DNA from: an uncultured Phycisphaerales bacterium
GTDB taxonomy: Bacteria; Planctomycetota; Phycisphaerae; Tepidisphaerales; Tepidisphaeraceae
Assembly (NCBI GenBank): GCA_903871935.1
Contig: CAIQIQ010000062.1
Location: 72,020 to 136,019, forward strand
Length of the DNA: 64,000 nucleotides
Reading direction: 5' to 3'
This document shows, one piece after another, positions 8,054 to 64,000 of this stretch; position 1 is the stretch's first letter; each line of letters begins with the position of its first letter. Under the pieces are notes generated by a model. The model was not told the DNA's origin, did no database searches, and was given only the letters and a program-made list of their open reading frames with translations. The position numbers were made by a program, and so were the translations under genes.

Positions 8054-10669
8054 CTATGTATCTACCCATGGCTCAGCCTTAATGCCCTGGCGAACCAGGG
8101 AAACACAATTCGTGACCGCCATCAGTGCAGTCACCTTTCCAGCGGAATCGCGGACGGGGCGGAGGTCCACATCTACAGTGAGTTGCCGACCGTCTTTTGT
8201 CTGGCAGGGAACAGCAGATAGCGACAAGGACTCGCCAGCGCGCCGTCGCTCAAGCAGTTTCGCGTACGTTTCGCGCTTATCGTCAGGCACGACTGGCATA
8301 GGCTTGCCAACCACCTCCTCCTGTGTCCAACCGAACAGTTTCGTAGCAGCATCGTTCCAGATGATGACGTTCCCCTGGAGATCCAGGACATTGATCGGGA
8401 CCGGCGTAACCTGCAAGACAGCTTCGAGCAACCCGAGGATCTCTTCTCTGCTCCGCTGCGATGCCTTTGCCTCCGTTCGGTCGATCATGAAGATAGTAGC
8501 GAGATCTCTATCCTCAGGGTCCAAAGGAGCGCCACCGACCATGACCGGAATTCGCCGGCCATCTTTGCGGACATACTCTTTCTCGTAGGGGCAACGCAGG
8601 CCGTTGCGAATTCGTTCGTGTTGTTCTCTAGTAACATCTATCCAATCGGGAGGAGTCAGAGTGATCCAATTGATCCTTCCCTCTTTCAAGTCTTCACGTG
8701 TATAACCGAGAATGCGGAGATACGTATCATTGGCATCAACTATGAGGCCAGTAGTGATGTGGGCGATTGCCATACCCATCATATTGCACTCAAAGATGCC
8801 GCGGAAATGCTGCTCGCTGGCGCGCAATTCCTCTTCCATCCTCTTACGCTGGCTGACATCGCGGAAATGCACAGCCAGGCCATCTTGCCATCCGTACGCA
8901 TTCAACGCGACGTGGGCCCGGGCAGCATCGCTGTAGTACTCGATGTGCAGCGTTCCGCAGGTCTGCATGCACTGCGCCAACTGGCGTGTGACATCGGCAT
9001 GTGCGTTTGGCGGCAGGACGTCTTCCAGCAGCTTGCCCATGGCGGCGTCGCGGTCGATCCGTAGCATCTGGGCCGCCTTTTCGTTCATCCAGGTAACGTG
9101 ATGCTCGCGATCCAGCACAACAAACCCGTCGGTGATGGAGCCCAGCACGCCGGTCAGGTACCGATTGCTGGCCTGAAGCGACTCCTCCATGCGTTTGCGC
9201 TCGCCGATGTCGTGGAAATAGACGGTCAAGCCTTGGACAGAAGCGTAGGCGTGCAGTTCCAGTGGCACACCCAGTAAAGGACTGAAAGCCTCGAAGTGTT
9301 CAGTTCGAGATTGCTCCAAACATGACTTCAGTCGATCGTATATCGGGGTATCGATCACGCCCGGAAAGACGTCTTTGAGCGTGCGCCCGACGATGGACTC
9401 ACGCTCGCGGCCGAACATCCGTGCGCTTTCCTGGTTCATCCAGGTCACGGTGCCATTTTGGTCGAACGCTATAAACGCATCGGTGATCGACTCAAGGATG
9501 TTTGTGATGCGCTGGTTGGTATCCCACAGTGCCGATTGGAGGCGATGCCGCTCGCTGACGTCGGTGGCCGTTCGCATCAGCCCCTGCCGTCCGCCGGTAA
9601 GCTTGCCGATCGCCATGGTAGTAAAATCCCAGATCCGCGTCTGGCCGGATGCGGTGTGGATCGTGTACTCGCCCTCTTCAACCGGTTCCGGCCAGTCGTA
9701 CAGTACTTCGACATCGGTCGGCTCCCAGCGGTTCTGGTCGTGCTCGCCCTTGTCAAACCAGTCGCCCATCGTAGGCACATCTCTCAAGTGCCACCCGCTC
9801 TGCTGCGTCCAGGCGCGATTGACCATGACGACTTCGCCATCCGCCGCATAGACCATGACCGGAAACGGCATGTTCTCGACGACAGTTCGGAAGCGACGCT
9901 CGCTGTCGCGCAGCGCCTCACGGATACGGTCCTGTTTGGCAATCTCGACCAGCAGTTTCCGTTCGCGCGGCCCGGGATTGCGGGTGGTGGAGCGCTTGCG
10001 GGCACTGTCCCAAACCTGTGCAAATTCCGGTGTTTCCTTCAGAAGTGCCTTGTGTACGGCCATCACGCGCCCATCCTGCATGGCATCAGCGTCGGGATGA
10101 GCGTCGATCCAAACTCGCTGCATGGCGGCAAAGGTCGAGAGCACCACCACCTTGTTGAAGAGTTCATCACCCAACGCATCATGGGCGGCGTTACGGCAAC
10201 GGCCGCCGGGATCTTTTCGAACCGTCATGCGGGCGACCGCCCAAAGTATCCACAGGTCAAGCCCTTCGGGCATGCTCGCCCAGCCGGAGTGCAGCACCCA
10301 CGTGGCGGAGAGGGTGCGAATCTGCTCGGCGATCAATCGCTGAGGCGGGAGTTTCATCCGCAGGAATTCCAGAATCTGCTGGCCGGTCATCCCCATCTGC
10401 CGCAGCGAACAGCTTCGCACGATCAGCGAATACGGCGTCAGATTGAACTTCGCCATCACCGTCAGGAACCGCTCCTTAAAGAGCCGCGGCAGTGTGTTCT
10501 GGACATACCCGGCCTGAGTGATGAGCCACGCAGCGCGCAGCGAAACCGGGTCTTGCGCCAAACTAACCATGGCTGGCGGGATGAACCCGAAAACCTGGTG
10601 GATCTCAGCCAGAATCGGCTGTGACTCAGGCGGCATGCCCGCGAAATCAGGTGTGGCCCCTGCACTCAT
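8054..10669 (-). CDS. Multi-PAS-domain sensor protein with a non-PAS N-terminal domain and no recognisable output domain
   Basis: An 871-aa ORF. Four or five PAS/PAC-like units recur, each followed by a [E/Q]RKRMEE linker. Examples are VVENMPFPVMVYAADGEVVMVNRAW, ILESITDAFIAFDQNGTVTWMNQ and GSITDGFVVLDREHHVTWMN. The first ~230 aa are not PAS and may be AhpD/CMD-like, though that is uncertain. Confidence 0.75.
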   Translation of the reverse strand: MSAGATPDFAGMPPESQPILAEIHQVFGFIPPAMVSLAQDPVSLRAAWLITQAGYVQNTLPRLFKERFLTVMAKFNLTPYSLIVRSCSLRQMGMTGQQILEFLRMKLPPQRLIAEQIRTLSATWVLHSGWASMPEGLDLWILWAVARMTVRKDPGGRCRNAAHDALGDELFNKVVVLSTFAAMQRVWIDAHPDADAMQDGRVMAVHKALLKETPEFAQVWDSARKRSTTRNPGPRERKLLVEIAKQDRIREALRDSERRFRTVVENMPFPVMVYAADGEVVMVNRAWTQQSGWHLRDVPTMGDWFDKGEHDQNRWEPTDVEVLYDWPEPVEEGEYTIHTASGQTRIWDFTTMAIGKLTGGRQGLMRTATDVSERHRLQSALWDTNQRITNILESITDAFIAFDQNGTVTWMNQESARMFGRERESIVGRTLKDVFPGVIDTPIYDRLKSCLEQSRTEHFEAFSPLLGVPLELHAYASVQGLTVYFHDIGERKRMEESLQASNRYLTGVLGSITDGFVVLDREHHVTWMNEKAAQMLRIDRDAAMGKLLEDVLPPNAHADVTRQLAQCMQTCGTLHIEYYSDAARAHVALNAYGWQDGLAVHFRDVSQRKRMEEELRASEQHFRGIFECNMMGMAIAHITTGLIVDANDTYLRILGYTREDLKEGRINWITLTPPDWIDVTREQHERIRNGLRCPYEKEYVRKDGRRIPVMVGGAPLDPEDRDLATIFMIDRTEAKASQRSREEILGLLEAVLQVTPVPINVLDLQGNVIIWNDAATKLFGWTQEEVVGKPMPVVPDDKRETYAKLLERRRAGESLSLSAVPCQTKDGRQLTVDVDLRPVRDSAGKVTALMAVTNCVSLVRQGIKAEPWVDT

Positions 10670-10926: not shown

Positions 10927-15387
<4,461 letters not shown>

Positions 15388-15390
15388 GAC

Positions 15391-15596
15391 CTAATCTTTC
15401 TTGGCTTCCGGAAGCTCTTCGCTTCCCCGTTTCATCACTACTTCAAATCCGCCCTGCTCCAGCTTTCTCCGACGTCTGATCTGGATCATCACCAGATTAG
15501 CAATCGCGAGCACCCACATCACCGCCATGAGCAATGCAATCATGAGCACTGCAATCCGGCTTATGTCGAATGTTGGTGCCATCTGGGCATCCTCGG

Positions 15597-15600
<4 letters not shown>
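15391..15600 (-). CDS. Small single-pass membrane protein encoded between rpoB and rpoC
   Basis: A 69-codon ORF that starts with GTG. It has one strong TM helix ([24 protein letters not shown]) followed by RRRRK. Its start overlaps the rpoB stop as GTGA, and its stop lies 3 nt before the rpoC ATG. An internal ATG at codon 7 is also possible. Confidence 0.45.
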
Positions 15601-19388
<3,788 letters not shown>

Positions 19389-19983
19389 CGGGGTTTCGTT
19401 TCAGCCTGCCAAGTTCCACCGACAAAATAAGCCGCCTTACTTAAAGAAGAGCGGCTTTCGTCGCCGGACACGCGGTTTCTCTGCACGTCCGGAGTTTTCT
19501 GGAACCCAACAAGTCAGTCGCTAACCGAAGTTAGTCAAGGCTTGGCGCAAAACGCAACAAGAACCTCTCCCGCTCTCAGCATTCAGAAAGTCGAGACAGA
19601 TTCTTTTCCTTACGAGTTTTGCTTCTTACGCGTCGCCAATTCGACATTCACAAGTCTACCGCGCTGGGCAGGCATGTCAAGCGATAGCCACCGCTCCCAA
19701 CGCGGATTTCTGCCGTCCAACGAGATATGTTATTATCATGCTAAAATATGCGGATTTTCGTTTGCGTTAACATGCTAAAACCATCGGATTCCATATTTGT
19801 CTTATTTTGCTGAAACAGCCATTTCGTCGGCCGCCCCATGGCCCACATGTCGTGATATCCGAACTTCCTGACCACCATCATTCCGGGCGCGGCAGCAAAA
19901 TACCCAATGCGCAGTTTCCCCCGCGATCTCGCTCGCCAATTGCCTTCTTGCATCCCGAAGCCCGACATGCTGCAATCTCCATC

Positions 19984-20718
19984 ATGTGCGACAGTATCAC
20001 CCGATCTCCCCAGCACCACTTCGCGACTACCCGCTGGACCGTGGTCCTCGCGGCCGGCGGCGACCCCGCTGCCCCACAGACGCGCGATGCCCTGTCATCG
20101 CTCGCCCAGACCTACTGGTATCCCCTCTACAGTTTCATCCGCCACCAAGGCTGCCCTGCCCAAGATGCCGAAGACCTGACACAGGAGTTCATCGCCAAGC
20201 TCATTGAAAAGCAATATCTCGCCGATGTTGATCCCGCCAAAGGTCGCTTTCGCTCCTTCCTCCTCGCCTCTTTGCGCCACTTTCTCTCCAACCAGCGCGA
20301 CCATGACCGCGCTGCCAAACGCGGCGGCCACAACAAACTCATCGCCCTTGACCAGCTCGACGCCGAAGCCCGCTATCGGCTTGAGCCCTCAACCGAAATG
20401 ACCCCCGAGCGCCTCTTCGACCGCCGCTGGGCGCTCGCTCTGCTTGACCGGGTTCTGCAGCGTCTCCGCGACGACTACGTCCGCAGTGGCCGGGCCAAGG
20501 TCTACGAAGCCCTCAAACCCGTCCTCCAGGCCGACCCCGATGTTCCTACGTATGCTAAGCTTGGGAAACAACTTGCAATGTCGGAGACCGCCATCAAGGT
20601 AGCAGTCCATCGCCTTCGCACCCGATATCGGCAGCTCCTGCGCGATGAAGTCGCCCAGACCGTGGCGGCCGACGCCGATCTCGATGCCGAACTGAATGAT
20701 CTTCTGAATTGCCTGTAA
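19984..20718 (+). CDS. ECF-type RNA polymerase sigma factor (STK-associated ECF group)
   Basis: The TTRWTVV motif near the N-terminus, a sigma-2 region (DLTQEFIAKLIE) and a C-terminal HTH (MSETAIKVAVHRLRTRYRQLL) are all present. The start at 19984 is taken from the internal Met of ORF 19807..20718. A Ser/Thr kinase gene follows directly. Confidence 0.8.
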   Translation: MCDSITRSPQHHFATTRWTVVLAAGGDPAAPQTRDALSSLAQTYWYPLYSFIRHQGCPAQDAEDLTQEFIAKLIEKQYLADVDPAKGRFRSFLLASLRHFLSNQRDHDRAAKRGGHNKLIALDQLDAEARYRLEPSTEMTPERLFDRRWALALLDRVLQRLRDDYVRSGRAKVYEALKPVLQADPDVPTYAKLGKQLAMSETAIKVAVHRLRTRYRQLLRDEVAQTVAADADLDAELNDLLNCL

Positions 20719-24117: not shown

Positions 24118-24360
24118 CTACCGCACACTGTCCAGCACGTGTTGAATCCTCTCCACGTCGGCGCCCTTGCCGAACTCAATCACCGCCGCTTCCGGGGTGC
24201 CTATGGGGGCATGAGTATCATCCTCCAGCGTGAAAGGAATGCCGTAAGTCGCCAACAGAGTTTCCACGCGCGCGATCTCGGCCGGCGGGATCATGATGTA
24301 TGGCCCGCATTCCGCATCCTGTCGAACATCAACTCGATCTTCTGCAAAACCATCCCACAT
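24118..24360 (-). CDS. Small hypothetical protein (80 aa)
   Basis: An AAGGGGGA RBS precedes the ATG. I recognise no family with confidence; a DUF2007-like fold is only a guess. It lies immediately downstream of the 145-bp dispersed repeat. Confidence 0.4.
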   Translation of the reverse strand: MWDGFAEDRVDVRQDAECGPYIMIPPAEIARVETLLATYGIPFTLEDDTHAPIGTPEAAVIEFGKGADVERIQHVLDSVR

Positions 24361-24397
24361 GAAATCCCCCTTTCTTCTATGATATTATGGTTGCTGC

Positions 24398-24540
24398 ACC
24401 TTTGTCCTCATCGGCTATCCAGATCACTGATCATCGCAGATTGCGCGCACGAACCTGAGCACCTTTGTCCTCTCCGGCCAATGACTTCAGGACAAGTGAC
24501 CAATGACCAGAAAGAAACTTACGCACCTCCTTCTCCATCA
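24398..24540 (-). repeat. 145-bp dispersed repeat, inverted copy of 34295..34440
   Basis: The reverse complement of 24398..24540 matches 34295..34440 at roughly 90-93% identity, read by eye. It contains two of the SD-plus-start-like units, GGAGGTGCGTAAGTTTC and ACAAAGGTGCTCAGGTTCG. Confidence 0.7.
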
Positions 24541-24694
24541 AAACGCTAACCACTTATACCACAACCCCTTACAACGATAACAGTTATTCGCGCGACCTCG
24601 GCTATCTTCCTTCCCTTCGTGCCTCCGCGCCCCAGTGCCTTCGTGCCTGCCATTTCCGAATTGCACCAACTGCCGTTGCGGGTAGGGTAAGTAC

Positions 24695-33774: not shown

Positions 33775-33879
33775 AGTGCGGGAATGATAGTGGAAACAAA
33801 CCAGAGGCGGCAATGGATGGGTGATCGTCATTGATTCCCGGCCGCGCCGGGATTTCGCTTCGCTCAACATTGGTCAATA

Positions 33880-34930
33880 GTCATTGGTCGGGATGGTCAG
33901 GGCGCATGGGTTGACGGTAGTGCGTATCACTATTCCGTAACGGTAGAGGATGTGGAAATAGGGTAGCAGCGACGAAGCGACGGAGCGACGAGGGGGGGAA
34001 CCGGAGCAGAACAGTAGAGGCGAAGCGTTCCATGGGTGTTCCACGCGCAGGTTGTGGATAAGTAGGAGGTGCGCAAGTTCTCGGCGGGGGTACAACCATG
34101 GTGCTATCTTTCGTGGCTGCAGGCAGTTATGGCAAAACAGAGGGAGGAGATGATCAAGTTCGGTGCGCTTGTGGATGATTCCCGGCAGAAGAGCGGAACT
34201 CGAAAAGCGGAAAGCGAGAATGAAGGCAAAGAGGGCGAGGAGGCGCGTATATCTTCTTGCTTTGTAAGATGTTGTGAGATAAGTGGTTAGCGCTTTGATG
34301 GGGAAGGAGGTGCGCACGTTTCTTTCTGGTCATTGGTCACTTGTCCTGAAGTCATTGGCCGGAGAAGACAAAGGTGCTCAGGTTCGCGCGCGCAATCTGC
34401 GATGATCAGTAATCCGCATTACCGATGAGGACAAAGGGGCTCAAGATCGAGTGCGCATCTTGGGGCGGCATTGCCTACTTGTCCGGTCGGAGTTCTGGGT
34501 ATTCACTTGTGAAAGAACGGCGGCCGGGGTGCAAGCCAAAGACAGCCTAGAGGCTGCACTCCGAACGCAGAACGCGAGGTCCTTCTATATATAAGGGTGG
34601 ATTTGGAGGGGTCGACTTGAGGGAGATGAGTATTGACAGAGACTTACGTGCATCCAGAAATCTTTCCACATTTTGGAGCAGCAGGAAGACGTAATGCAGA
34701 AGTCAGAAGACAGAAGTCAGAAGCAGAGGGAGGAGTGGGCGATTGGCCGCTGTTGAGGCAGAGATCGGGCACGCTTTGAACACGGATATCGCCATATTCA
34801 ACCTGTAGATCTGCTGGAACCTTTGCGGAAGTGTAGAGCGTTGGGTTGATCGCTGCATCCCGCTCGCCTGGCGAGGGAAACGGCCCATCCCCCACATACG
34901 GCGCTCTACACCGCTCCTGACAGACCTGCT
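33880..34930. repeat. About 1 kb noncoding tract of internally repeated SD-plus-start-like units, paralogous to 63.1-64.0 kb
   Basis: Contains no plausible long ORF. At least five copies of the [purine-rich GGAGG/GGGAAG/ACAAAG] + (A/G)TGC(G/T)CA(A/G)G(A/T)T(C/A) unit occur, at 34066, 34306, 34371, 34432 and 34449. Blocks align with 63.44-63.93 kb at about 75%. Confidence 0.6.
34295..34440 (+). repeat. 145-bp dispersed repeat, direct copy (partner at 24398..24540 inverted)
   Basis: The two copies are near-identical apart from about 10 substitutions. Confidence 0.7.
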
Positions 34931-34985
34931 ACAAAGACGTCCCATGGCAACCGGAAACGCTTCACCGTCTCGTCGCGCAGGCAAG
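34895..34985 (+). promoter_or_regulatory. Conserved ~70-nt 5' module spanning the start codon of the GDPD gene (paralog at 37383..37465)
   Basis: CTACACCGCTCCTGACAGACCTGCTACAAAGACGTCCCATGGCAACCGGAAACGCTTCACCGTCTCGTCGCG is about 85% identical to 37383..37455. The module includes TA(C/T)AAAG 8 nt before the ATG and the first ~12 codons. Confidence 0.4.
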
Positions 34986-37040: not shown

Positions 37041-37401
37041 ACTGTCCGAGGGAAAGCTGAGTTATCGGCCGCGGCAATTGATGCGCGGCTCGTTTTCGTG
37101 GTCTTCACTGGATCAACTCAAGAGCCTGGAACTGCGGCTATTCTGGTACACGCAGGGAAAGGGAACGCAGGATGTGACGCTTGTTGAAATGCGTCGCATC
37201 AACTCACCGGCGTTGATGGGGCGAGAGCGATTTGAATTTCGCGTACCGGACGGTCCGTACACAATGCATGGGAAACTGATCTCGGTGCTGTGGGCATTGG
37301 AGTTGGTGAGCGAAGGTCCGAACGAGGTCACACGAGTGGACGTGGTCGTATCGCCGTGGGGAGAGCCGGTAATCCTGCGGGAAGAACTACACCGCTTCTG
37401 A
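37024..37401 (+). CDS. Hypothetical protein (125 aa) overlapping the 3' end of 35760..37040
   Basis: The ORF overlaps the upstream gene by 17 nt, in a different frame, and its stop is embedded in the conserved 70-nt module. I recognise no family. Confidence 0.35.
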   Translation: MRMAIELSEGKLSYRPRQLMRGSFSWSSLDQLKSLELRLFWYTQGKGTQDVTLVEMRRINSPALMGRERFEFRVPDGPYTMHGKLISVLWALELVSEGPNEVTRVDVVVSPWGEPVILREELHRF

Positions 37402-37465
37402 GAGACCTGCTATAAAGACGCCCCATGGCCAGCGAAAACACTACCTCGTCTCGTCGCGTTCCCTT
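37383..37465 (+). promoter_or_regulatory. Second copy of the conserved ~70-nt 5' module, spanning the start codon of the oxidoreductase gene
   Basis: CTACACCGCTTCTGAGAGACCTGCTATAAAGACGCCCCATGGCCAGCGAAAACACTACCTCGTCTCGTCGCG. Compare with 34895..34985. Confidence 0.4.
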
Positions 37466-63015: not shown

Positions 63016-63379
63016 GGTGCTGGCCTCCAGCGAGAGATAGCCGTAGATACCCAAACCTGAAGAAACAATCCCAGCCGCCGGAAGAGGCTGCTAAGCCAGG
63101 CACCGGAGGCGGAACTTTTCATCACTGCGTATAAGCGGGAGGAACACATTGTCCCAAGCCTAAACCCACTTCGACGCGAGGTGAGCATAAAACGACGCAA
63201 ATACAGTGTCAAGGAAGAGTTGCCCGTTTCCTGAAAGTGGATGGAGGGAACAGGTGGCGGCCGGAAGGCGGATTGGTGGGCAACCGGGCTGGAGAAGGCC
63301 AGCCGCCGAGCACAGCAGATGTGCCGGGAAGGCGTTTGCGTGGATACCATGGAGGCCAGGAAGTCCCAGTTGGAGGGCC

Positions 63380-63940
63380 GATAGATCGGCGGGAGGGAAG
63401 ATGCTCAGGTTCTTGTGCACAGGCAAAGAGGTCGGTGACGCGGATCATGTCGGGTGGAGAAGTCGGAAGCAAGGAGACGAGCGGGGACCCGAATGGCGAA
63501 CTCTGATGACGAGTCAATGACGAAGGCGAGAGCATGACGAATGGGTGGTGGACGGTTGTGGATAAGTAGCACGTGCGCAGGTTCTGGGCGTGGGTACCAC
63601 CTATGCGACAAGTGCCTTGAGGACAATGAGTTAGGTGCAGTTTGGTTGAGGAGGTGCGCAAGTTCGATACGCTTGTGGATAACTCGGACGAAGAGCGGAG
63701 AGCGAATAGCGGAATGCGGAAACACCCAGGCATTGAGGCACGAAGGGAAGGAAGATGCTCAAGATCACGGGTAGTGATTATTGATTGTTCCGTAACGAGA
63801 GAGGGAAGATGCTCAAGATCGTAGCGACGAAGGGGAAGATGCTCAGGTTAGCGCGCGCAACCTCGGGTTCTCGGTGATTTAGCTCACTGATGGCGACAAA
63901 GGTGCTCAGGTTAGCGCGCACAGATTGGGTGGAACGCGTT
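63380..63940. repeat. Noncoding tract of at least seven SD-plus-start-like short units, paralog of 33.94-34.46 kb
   Basis: Units occur at 63388, 63560, 63640, 63739, 63787, 63826 and 63890, with forms such as GGGAAGATGCTCAAGATC, AAGGTGCTCAGGTTAGCGCGC and GAGGAGGTGCGCAAGTTCG. The block 63540..63700 aligns with 34040..34200. Confidence 0.6.
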
Positions 63941-64000
63941 CCATCTTGATCTACTTTGGTCCACTGTCAGTTTGGCAGGGTGGTGGGCGGTATTCAGTTG

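Follow-up and report, generated by a model that had tools for sequence, protein, structure and literature searches.

The 64,000-nt stretch of contig CAIQIQ010000062.1 from an uncultured Phycisphaerales bacterium (hereafter the window) contains two long intergenic tracts that carry copies of a modular repeat built around a 13-nt box. Tract 1 (33775-34943) lies between the start of a Gfo/Idh/MocA oxidoreductase gene on the minus strand (start 33774) and that of a glycerophosphodiesterase gene (start 34944). Tract 2 begins at 63016, next to the start (63015) of a minus-strand gene for a 732-aa protein, and runs beyond the end of the window; in a longer contig the gap measures ~2.75 kb. The initial annotation, made from the letters of the window alone, had placed both tracts correctly, with limits (33.9-34.9 kb and 63.1-64.0 kb) that are corrected here to these positions. 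Both are purine-rich on the plus strand (0.56-0.66, against 0.485 for the whole window), with a GC skew of +0.19 and +0.26 on the strand of the repeated unit. Neither holds a credible long open reading frame (ORF), as had been stated at the outset: the longest, of 147 and 174 aa, both lie on the minus strand and are without relatives.

When the window was compared with itself, the two tracts matched at 69% identity over 167 nt and at 70% over 94 nt, where ~75% over several hundred nucleotides had been claimed, and a third copy came to light at 24396-24640 of the minus strand, which over 205 nt shares 88% identity with 34236-34440. We refer to the copies as t1, t2 and t3 (the partial copy of a third tract). 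A family profile, built from the alignment of copies and run with nhmmer, delimited each of them. Copy t1 (34040..34700, plus strand) is of full length and carries the 3' end designated variant II below (match 34025-34700, E = 2.9e-122). Copy t2 (63541..64000, plus strand; match 63527-64000, E = 1.4e-95) is cut by the window end; it runs 63 nt further, as a variant-I 3' end, in L011, a contig from a stratified-lake data set that is 99.87% identical to the window. Copy t3 (24396..24640, minus strand; E = 7.9e-23) lacks the first two modules, M1 and M2, and is cut inside the unit of M4, before the promoter region; it stands directly upstream of an 80-aa ORF (24360..24118), 36-240 nt from that gene. 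Together with copies found elsewhere, these three bear out the early impression that the element is both copied between loci and internally repeated.

The box that recurs within the copies is strongly over-represented. The motif RTGCKCARGWT has 11 exact matches in the 64 kb versus 0.83 expected, a number reached in 0 of 100 dinucleotide-preserving shuffles, and nine of the 11 fall within the two tracts, on the plus strand. If one mismatch is permitted, the tracts hold 13 copies (six in 34043-34447 and seven in 63401-63912), in agreement with the twelve or more counted at first. Of the ~20-nt unit described with that count, the repeated box stands, with a conserved core of only 13 nt, AG-RTGCKCARGWT, in which A at position -2 is present in 56/56 instances and G at -1 in 52/56. 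The purine run abuts RTG directly, with no spacer, and the core box is non-palindromic and always in direct orientation. Each copy has 2-6 strict 13-mers.

In t1, on the plus strand, the exact motif scan located the units of M1 (AGGTGCGCAAGTT, 34067..34079) and M3 (AGGTGCTCAGGTT, 34372..34384), and the mismatch scan added the degenerate unit of M2 (AGATGATCAAGTT, 34148..34160), an extra unit (AGGTGCGCACGTT, 34308..34320) and the unit of M4 (AGGGGCTCAAGAT, 34435..34447), where GGG replaces RTG. All units of tract 2 are exact matches on the plus strand: an isolated one upstream of t2 (AGATGCTCAGGTT, 63399..63411), those of M1 (ACGTGCGCAGGTT, 63571..63583) and M2 (AGGTGCGCAAGTT, 63652..63664), two extra units of the same sequence (AGATGCTCAAGAT, 63753..63765 and 63807..63819), and those of M3 (AGATGCTCAGGTT, 63837..63849) and M4 (AGGTGCTCAGGTT, 63900..63912). 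The minus-strand copy t3 has one unit from the mismatch scan (AGGTGCGTAAGTT, 24516..24528) and one from the exact scan (AGGTGCTCAGGTT, 24452..24464). Tract 2 thus has seven exact units in the window; L011 has six, the counterpart of 63807..63819 having decayed to GGGCTCAAGAT, which no longer matches the exact motif, and the orthologous locus L032 of a related strain has three.

Alignments demonstrated that every copy is a non-coding element of 0.45-0.75 kb, 56-60% purine on the unit strand, with conserved boxes in one order and poorly conserved spacers between them. M1 reads TGTGGATAAGT-nnCAG-GTGCGCAGGTTC..GGGGTACCCCC, and its extended motif TGTGGATAAGT is invariant in 10/10 aligned copies. 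M2 reads GGGGAGGAG-GTGCGCARGTTC-n6-TTGTGGATAA(C/G)TC, i.e. with the tail TTGTGGATAAsTC. A variable purine-rich stretch with 0-3 extra units separates it from M3 (GAAG-ATGCTCAGGTT-AGCGCGCGCA), which is followed by the inverted repeat GTGA-N6-TCAC and by M4 (GAAG-RTGCTCAAGAT-CGGTGCGCATCTT). M5 consists of one of two hairpin modules and then GGTATTCRnTTGnnAAAkArC. The 3' end is likewise one of two alternatives, variant I (CCTCTACCTATACAGG-GGTGTCGCGCTTTnTGCGCGCAAAGCGCACCAC ... GATTGCTGTAAGTCGCGGTGCGCGCCTGyGCGCG) or variant II (CCCCCATAATAAGGGG ... TTGACA ...). The 5' and 3' ends of the element share the direct motif TAAGT..GGTGCGC; there are no terminal inverted repeats, and a repeat scan of t1 gave 0 inverted repeats.

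Distances in the first part of the element are fixed. The M1-M2 block, cut with fixed flanks, measures 142-143 nt in all 10 full-length copies extracted, and the spacer from the M1 unit to the M2 unit is 69-70 nt in 12/12 copies. Both boxes contain a 9-mer related to the binding site of DnaA, for which TTATCCACA is the consensus and TGTGGATAA its reverse complement. Exact TGTGGATAA occurs at three sites in the window, all within the tracts and on the plus strand: in M1 of t1 (34053..34061), in M1 of t2 (63557..63565) and in M2 of t2 (63674..63682). The corresponding 9-mer in M2 of t1, TGTGGATGA (34170..34178, plus strand), is DnaA-box-like with one mismatch. The two 9-mers of a copy are 117 nt apart, or ~11 helical turns, and conservation falls right at the 5' edge of the 9-mer.

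Pairing analysis placed the inverted repeat between M3 and M4 at 34405..34426 in t1 (ATCaGTAAT-CCGC-ATTACcGAT, plus strand), at 63871..63890 in t2 (TCGGTGA-TTTAGC-TCACTGA, plus strand) and at 24410..24431 in t3 (minus strand), where the 3' arm has decayed; its spacer is a fixed 6 nt in 8/11 copies. By alignment, M5 of t1 (34474..34518, plus strand) comprises the hairpin CCTAC-TTGTCCG-GTcGG and the box GGTATTCACTTGTGAAAGAAC, and t2 carries the alternative M5 (63938..64000, plus strand; GTTCCATCTTG...CTGTC-AGTTT-GGCAG..., with the start of the GGTATTCAGTTG box), which it has in common with copies on L015, L028 and L030. The variant-II 3' module of t1 (34581..34661, plus strand), common to L019 and L027, was aligned as CCTTCTATATATAAGGGTGG, a hairpin or -10-like box, followed by TTGACA-N17-AGAAAT, a putative promoter-like site oriented towards the gene starting at 34944.

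Copies of the family also exist beyond the window, which is itself identical to a contig of JGI metagenome 3300009502 (Ga0114951). About 12 distinct copies were found in boreal-lake metagenomes, at least four from the window-identical metagenome and at least eight from Ga0209083, so that the search for further copies, by which the first reading was to be judged, came out in its favour. An exact-pattern scan of JGI metagenomes returned seven contigs of Ga0209083 (3300025162) and one other contig with clustered units; four more loci were reached by protein searches with spurious ORF translations across the element. The profile matches the retrieved copies at E = 1e-94 to 1e-150 and has no other match in the collected DNA. 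The family is narrow, since searches with the spurious ORFs gave only themselves or a handful of copies. Scanning species-representative genomes with the M3 pattern gave 10 matches, all of them single chance matches in unrelated phyla, and viral contigs gave 0 matches, with five chance matches that had no further similarity. Most contigs carrying tract 2 end inside it, as expected of a repeat that breaks assemblies.

Every copy is intergenic. On the M1 side a divergently transcribed gene starts 55-540 nt away in nine of 11 copies, and a gene ends there in the other two; the 3' side faces a gene start in ~6 copies and a gene end in ~4. This bias in orientation toward gene starts is weak (one-sided p ~0.03), and the copy on L019 sits between convergent genes. 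The neighbours are functionally unrelated, including an oxidoreductase, a phosphodiesterase, a HEAT-repeat protein, QueD, extracytoplasmic function (ECF) sigma factors, a glycosyltransferase, a histidine kinase and others.

We compared the loci with their orthologs on ctg81627l (ENA ERZ21831265, which also includes ctg79482l), a long-read contig of a related strain (~90% identical) that holds orthologs of all three: t2 with L032, t1 with L038 and the t3 locus with L040. From strain to strain, one and the same locus can have a copy with another number of units or with swapped modules, or lack the copy altogether. At the tract 2 locus, the flanking coding sequence is 92.0% identical, with changes of 31/23/122 by codon position. 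Identity is 94.6% in the first 185 nt upstream of the gene, 81.9% in the next 340 nt, which is about the neutral rate, and 68.7% in M1-M2. After M2 the sequences are not alignable; there L032 has one unit versus four in the window, and M5 differs. At the tract 1 locus, the coding sequence is 93.9% identical (changes 3/4/54), and the M1-M2 spacer only 53.3%, against ~84% for neutral sites, with its length unchanged and the adjacent post-M2 segment at 84.5%; as its 3' module, L038 carries variant I, in contrast to variant II of the window copy. Copy t3 has no counterpart in L040, where homology begins exactly at the element end (24398) and the upstream neighbour gene differs. In L041, a more distant relative with flanks ~80% identical, M1-M2 is absent upstream of the same gene, and what is kept there is a single unit, the boxes M5b and M6a, and a tandem array of GTGTAGCA. 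Between L024 and L031 there are five differences in 4.9 kb, all inside the element, which may partly reflect mixing of paralogous reads in assembly.

The fixed-length M1-M2 spacer is exchanged between loci. The spacer of L038 is 79% identical to that of L028 versus 57% to its ortholog t1, and the spacer of t2 is 79% identical to that of L016 versus 63% to its ortholog L032. The repeats also mark rearrangement breakpoints: gene order between the window and ctg81627l breaks at all three tracts. In the related strain, IS630/IS66 fragments and a haemolysin-type gene lie beyond tract 2, and IS21 lies beyond tract 1. The IS21-family element (IstA/IstB genes; L038:343-2894) is inserted within the variant-I 3' module of the t1 ortholog, with TGTCAAGCGACAATT... 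ends and a 6-bp duplication, AGGATC.

Smaller repeats were observed in and around the same intergenic regions. Tract 1 contains purine-rich tandem repeats of CAGAAGT (x4.6, 34696-34727) and AGCGACGA (x3, 33968-33991), and CAGAAG runs similar to them are also present in L028. A segment of ~120 nt (33831-33950), missing in L038, carries a terminator-like hairpin, TCCCGGCCGCGCCGGGATTTCGCTTCGCTCAAC (module 33836-33868), together with GGTCATTGG repeats; the hairpin module recurs elsewhere in L023 and L030, and appears to be a separate small mobile module. Another module, GTCGCCACGGCGAC-TCAGGACGAGCGGGTAAACTGCAGGATGAA (a hairpin and tail), was found at L016:2691-2735, at L023:9391-9435 and, on L019, between M2 and M3, thus in varying position relative to the element; two loci match each other at 98% identity in this module, which was not found in the window. 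Finally, a tandem array of a 10-11-nt unit with GTGTAGCA is present in repeat-bearing intergenic regions at L041:3099-3172 and L023:~9800-9900.

On the basis of these results we propose, with a probability of about 0.5, that the tracts are copies of a lineage-specific, modular interspersed repeat that is intergenic, acts as DNA and evolves by exchange between copies. The family exists, it is multicopy, and its boxes are under sequence-level constraint. That the element works as DNA, and not as a peptide-coding or structured-RNA gene, is suggested by the fixed box distances with free spacers, the DnaA boxes, the 6-nt palindrome spacer and the many TGCGCA-type palindromes. The boxes would serve as recognition sites for DNA-binding proteins, either a machinery that spreads and homogenises the repeat or host proteins such as DnaA. 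Recombination between copies, or gene conversion, might spread and homogenise the element, as might unequal crossing-over between its units, and the neighbouring genes might be affected as a side effect, through promoters that are supplied or separated and through rearrangements.

Several observations weigh against this proposal. Neither a transposase nor terminal inverted repeats nor target-site duplications turned up with the copies. The conservation of boxes versus spacers implies selection on each copy, which does not follow of itself from a purely selfish repeat. In several small hairpins the pairing is kept although the sequences differ, hairpin-forming inserts of variable length lie between M5b and M6, and the 3' module folds somewhat better than shuffles (z down to -4.3, minus strand); these features fit a role as RNA or single-stranded DNA as well as one as DNA. 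The gene start on the M1 side of nine in 11 copies could also point to a regulatory role in the host rather than to neutrality.

We then weighed the possibility that the element is transcribed into a functional RNA, a structured regulatory or sponge RNA having been the first candidate of the initial annotation. It would be a stand-alone long non-coding RNA, several small RNAs or long leaders, whose many purine-rich GGAGG/GGAAG-RUG boxes would capture ribosomes, or a GGA- or purine-binding protein such as CsrA or Hfq, in the manner of a decoy or sponge. Alternatively, the minus strand might yield CU-rich RNAs complementary to Shine-Dalgarno (SD) sequences, or only the variant-I 3' module (~135 nt) might be a small-RNA gene, behind TTGAGA-N18-TATACA. 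We regard this explanation as unlikely, though several hairpins are maintained. The strand asymmetry is strong, with all units in one orientation, and hairpin inserts of variable length stand between conserved boxes. In the GTGA-N6-TCAC inverted repeat of the M3-M4 region, which is kept with partly compensatory changes, 81% of cells are paired, where slid controls have 31-54%; the covariation score of 0.289 compares with 0.21 in shuffles, of which 15 in 500 reach 0.289. The variant-I 3' module (135 nt) gave z-scores of -0.5 to -2.7 (plus strand) and -2.0 to -4.3 (minus strand), and one of its pairs shows double changes. This module owes its fold, moderately better than that of shuffles, to the long imperfect inverted repeat made by its two ends. 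As such repeats can pair in DNA and on either strand alike, the hairpin signals do not identify an RNA. The promoter-like TTGAGA-N18-TATACA, which can be read in the sequence of 4-5 copies, has its two boxes 18 to ~105 nt apart, depending on the copy.

The M1-M2 block, bearer of the most conserved units, gave no sign of an RNA structure. Single M1-M2 sequences fold no better than shuffled ones (z -2.2 to +1.4, mean near zero), and RNAalifold on 10 of them gave -10.3 kcal/mol with a covariation term of +0.44, the pairs being few and invariant and hence uninformative. The compensatory changes that were to be looked for in the conserved block are absent from this alignment of 10 copies. In the M3-M5 region the consensus fold is weak on both strands (-5.3 kcal/mol for plus, -3.7 kcal/mol for minus). 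Rfam gave no relevant match for the whole window at gathering thresholds or for t1 and L024 at E <= 5; a small nucleolar RNA (snoRNA) match at E = 0.33 was rejected as chance. The GGA count equals the expectation from composition (in t1, for example, 18 observed versus 18.1 expected). Scans for sigma-70-like promoters and intrinsic terminators detected none conserved within the modules, and a check by eye against sigma-54 and ECF promoter consensus sequences gave nothing consistent. Searching with two CsrA sequences by tblastn gave no match in 320 kb, which is a part of the genome only and makes the result uninformative. The many copies per genome and the rapid loss and swapping of modules between strains would also be unusual for a trans-acting RNA gene. 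Like CsrB, RsmY and RsmZ, the element does not code for protein and repeats purine-rich sequences with GGA many times in a single orientation, but it differs from them in that GGA is not enriched, in lacking GGA units in hairpin loops, a promoter, a terminator or an Rfam match, and in being present in many copies per genome. For the element as a whole, therefore, these analyses gave no support to a structured or sponge RNA.

A second alternative retains the action as DNA and assigns it to the host. The element would be a nucleoprotein or regulatory cassette, kept because its boxes bind host proteins: possibly DnaA at the two boxes, a CRP/FNR-type dimer at GTGA-N6-TCAC and a further factor at the 13-mers. 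It might act as a distributed site for DnaA titration or as the upstream regulatory region of the gene on the M1 side. The restriction of exact TGTGGATAA in the window to the tracts, the fixed 117-nt spacing of the boxes and the conservation edge at the 9-mer are in keeping with such a role. So are the fixed M1-M2 length, although the divergence of the spacer is saturated, the 6-nt palindrome spacer in most copies (8/11), and the divergent gene start 55-540 nt from M1 in 9/11. On the other hand, the element is dispensable at individual loci, since L040 lacks t3 and L041 lacks M1-M2 upstream of the same Gfo gene. Regulatory regions with conservation between strains are found outside the element: identity over 63016-63200 reaches 94.6%, and the promoter of the Gfo gene is a separate one. 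The adjoining genes have no function in common, and TTATCCACA is the general consensus, which may not be what the DnaA of this host prefers. In t1, moreover, the palindrome is changed symmetrically (GTAA/TTAC), which fits a hairpin better than base-specific contacts with a protein. We consider a host cassette of this kind doubtful. A more specific form of the idea, which we judge improbable, is that dispersed cassettes of fixed geometry, with DnaA boxes 117 nt apart, iteron-like 13-mers and a CRP-type palindrome, might constitute a distributed DnaA-titrating or replication-coupled system in which the 69-70-nt spacer would be actively exchanged.

Clusters of DnaA boxes outside the origin are known from Escherichia coli (datA, DARS) and Bacillus subtilis; they are single-copy and locus-specific and contain 3-5 or more boxes. 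Like them, the element is intergenic, is not an origin and has boxes of the TTATCCACA consensus at a fixed distance. It differs in having two boxes, as candidate binding sites, inside a dispersed, strain-variable repeat. A replication origin was rejected, as there is no single GC-skew switch at the tracts and at least three copies are present in the window. An Xer/dif site was also considered, GGTGCGCA resembling a XerC arm, and was rejected for want of an inverted partner arm at 6-8 nt.

We also investigated whether the units are translated. The initial annotation had read each unit as an SD sequence, a start codon and further codons, in all four conserved codons, and had proposed an array of translated micro-ORFs, each unit being the ribosome-binding site and start of a short functional peptide or leader. 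The first position of RTG is indeed always A or G, giving ATG or GTG, in 53/56 instances. The ORF opened by M3 is exactly 12 codons long in several copies, ending at the TGA/TAA of the inverted repeat, and the M2 translations are alike, VRKFG(V/A)(I/L/V)VDNS. However, in the position matrix of the 56 instances, GTG-CGC-ARG-TTC is kept at every base including third-codon positions, with only A/G transitions varying. This holds across copies whose spacers are saturated with changes, and GTG-CGC-AAG-TTC shows no synonymous changes. In contrast, the flanking genes change mainly at third positions (122/176 and 54/61). No transition is commoner on a purine-rich strand than that between A and G, and one unit has GGG in place of RTG. 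From the M1 unit to the M2 unit the distance is either 80 or 81 nt, depending on the copy, so that the two share no reading frame, and the ORFs that they open have unrelated tails and range from 8 to 162 codons.

The frequent 12-codon length of the M3 ORF is explained by its TGA/TAA belonging to the inverted repeat, and a stop is in frame in ~6/11 copies, or ~4/9 independent ones, versus 1 in 3 expected. The likeness of the peptides at 34147 and 63640, noted initially as homology, is real, but the two are translations of a single DNA module, M2, and cover its DnaA-box 9-mer (...ATT GTG GAT AAC TC). Furthermore, the purines of the unit touch the start codon, while of the seven gene starts that gene-caller records confirm, two have an SD, at 5-8 nt from ATG, and five have none. 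With neither frame nor length conserved and the translations having no protein relatives, a micro-ORF array is very improbable; the resemblance of the unit to a miniature gene start is coincidental, and nothing indicates that the units are translated.

The remaining proposal of the initial annotation, decay of the 5' ends of a multicopy gene, considered here along with a frameshifted pseudogene and with a transposase as an example of the parent, would account for a multicopy, dispersed family in which every unit resembles a gene start and for the long open frames on the minus strand (147 and 174 aa), but it is hardly credible, as no frame tried has protein relatives, conservation follows boxes and spacers and is not codon-periodic, the conserved frames switch between copies (80 or 81 nt spacing), and no candidate or full-length parent gene adjoins any of the ~12 copies. 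The 174-aa ORF matched only itself among 5.8 billion proteins, the 147-aa ORF had a single weak match among 1.84 billion representatives, and the ORF through the 3' module had six protein matches, all to other copies of the element.

Returning to the interspersed repeat that we favour, we compared it with known systems. The literature gave no described repeat of this kind, only the general concept of mobile promoters. The behaviour of the element is closest to that of bacterial interspersed mosaic elements (BIMEs) and BOX elements, and it is a member of neither family, given its non-palindromic core, several-fold greater length, strand asymmetry and a main block without a stable fold. BIMEs, built from repetitive extragenic palindromic (REP) sequences or palindromic units (PU) in enterobacteria, are extragenic multicopy mosaics with variable linkers and module number that bind integration host factor (IHF) and gyrase. 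The element studied here is also extragenic and multicopy (~12 copies) and is a mosaic of motifs in a set order. However, the BIME core is an imperfect palindrome of ~35 nt in alternating orientation, and that of the present element is a 13-nt non-palindromic box in direct orientation, within a repeat that is much longer (0.45-0.75 kb), purine-skewed and equipped with DnaA-box 9-mers. BOX elements of Streptococcus pneumoniae (boxA-boxB(n)-boxC) are intergenic and dispersed, have no transposase of their own and can affect neighbouring genes. Ordered modules with a variable number of internal units are common to both, and here the number varies even between near-identical strains. There is no sequence relationship; the present element is several times longer and has alternative 3' modules and spacer exchange, and BOX elements are predicted to fold stably, whereas M1-M2 has a z-score of ~0 and only the 3' module gives a modest signal.

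Putative mobile promoters are homologous sequences of 50-100 nt found within ~150 nt of the start codon, upstream of non-homologous genes (PMC3488235). Here too, homologous non-coding sequence precedes unrelated genes, and most copies border gene starts. In comparison, the present element is far larger and in one case (L019) lies between convergent genes, and its promoter is only putative. The 205 nt shared by t1 and t3 (88%) lie 36-240 nt upstream of the gene in t3, which falls in the range set for this class, and 500-700 nt from gene 34944 in t1.

Other classes were tried and rejected. The MITE class (miniature inverted-repeat transposable elements) was discarded because there are no terminal inverted repeats, nor a duplication at the t3/L040 boundary, though no clean empty site was compared. 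An array of clustered regularly interspaced short palindromic repeats (CRISPR) was discarded, as it had been initially: the boxes are 13 nt with position-specific flanks, and the same spacers recur between loci at 53-79% identity. A group II intron, suggested by units starting with GTGCG, was discarded as half of the units have ATGCT and no Rfam intron model matched.

If the reading proposed here holds, it is mainly a caution and a catalogue entry: a box that mimics an SD sequence, a start and codons is not a gene start. Long empty intergenic tracts of this lake bacterium would be built from private mosaic repeats that break metagenome assemblies, mark breakpoints of synteny and vary even among strains that are nearly identical. 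The pair of DnaA boxes with its fixed spacing and the swapped spacer of constant length could point to an unrecognised function at the DNA level or to a mechanism of exchange, and are the features most worth following up.

Elsewhere in the window, a search for tRNA and tmRNA genes found none. The genes present may point to the Planctomycetes-Verrucomicrobia group. Two adjacent minus-strand ORFs of 1263 and 1486 aa (10927-19388) are candidates for rpoB and rpoC by size and order, and an ECF-type sigma factor gene lies at 19807-20718. Within tract 1, the 38 nt at 34906-34943 are 89% identical to those at 37387-37424. Both segments stand immediately 5' of the start codons of unrelated-looking genes, the glycerophosphodiesterase gene (34944) and a Gfo/Idh/MocA oxidoreductase gene (37425), respectively, and may represent a shared leader or regulatory site.

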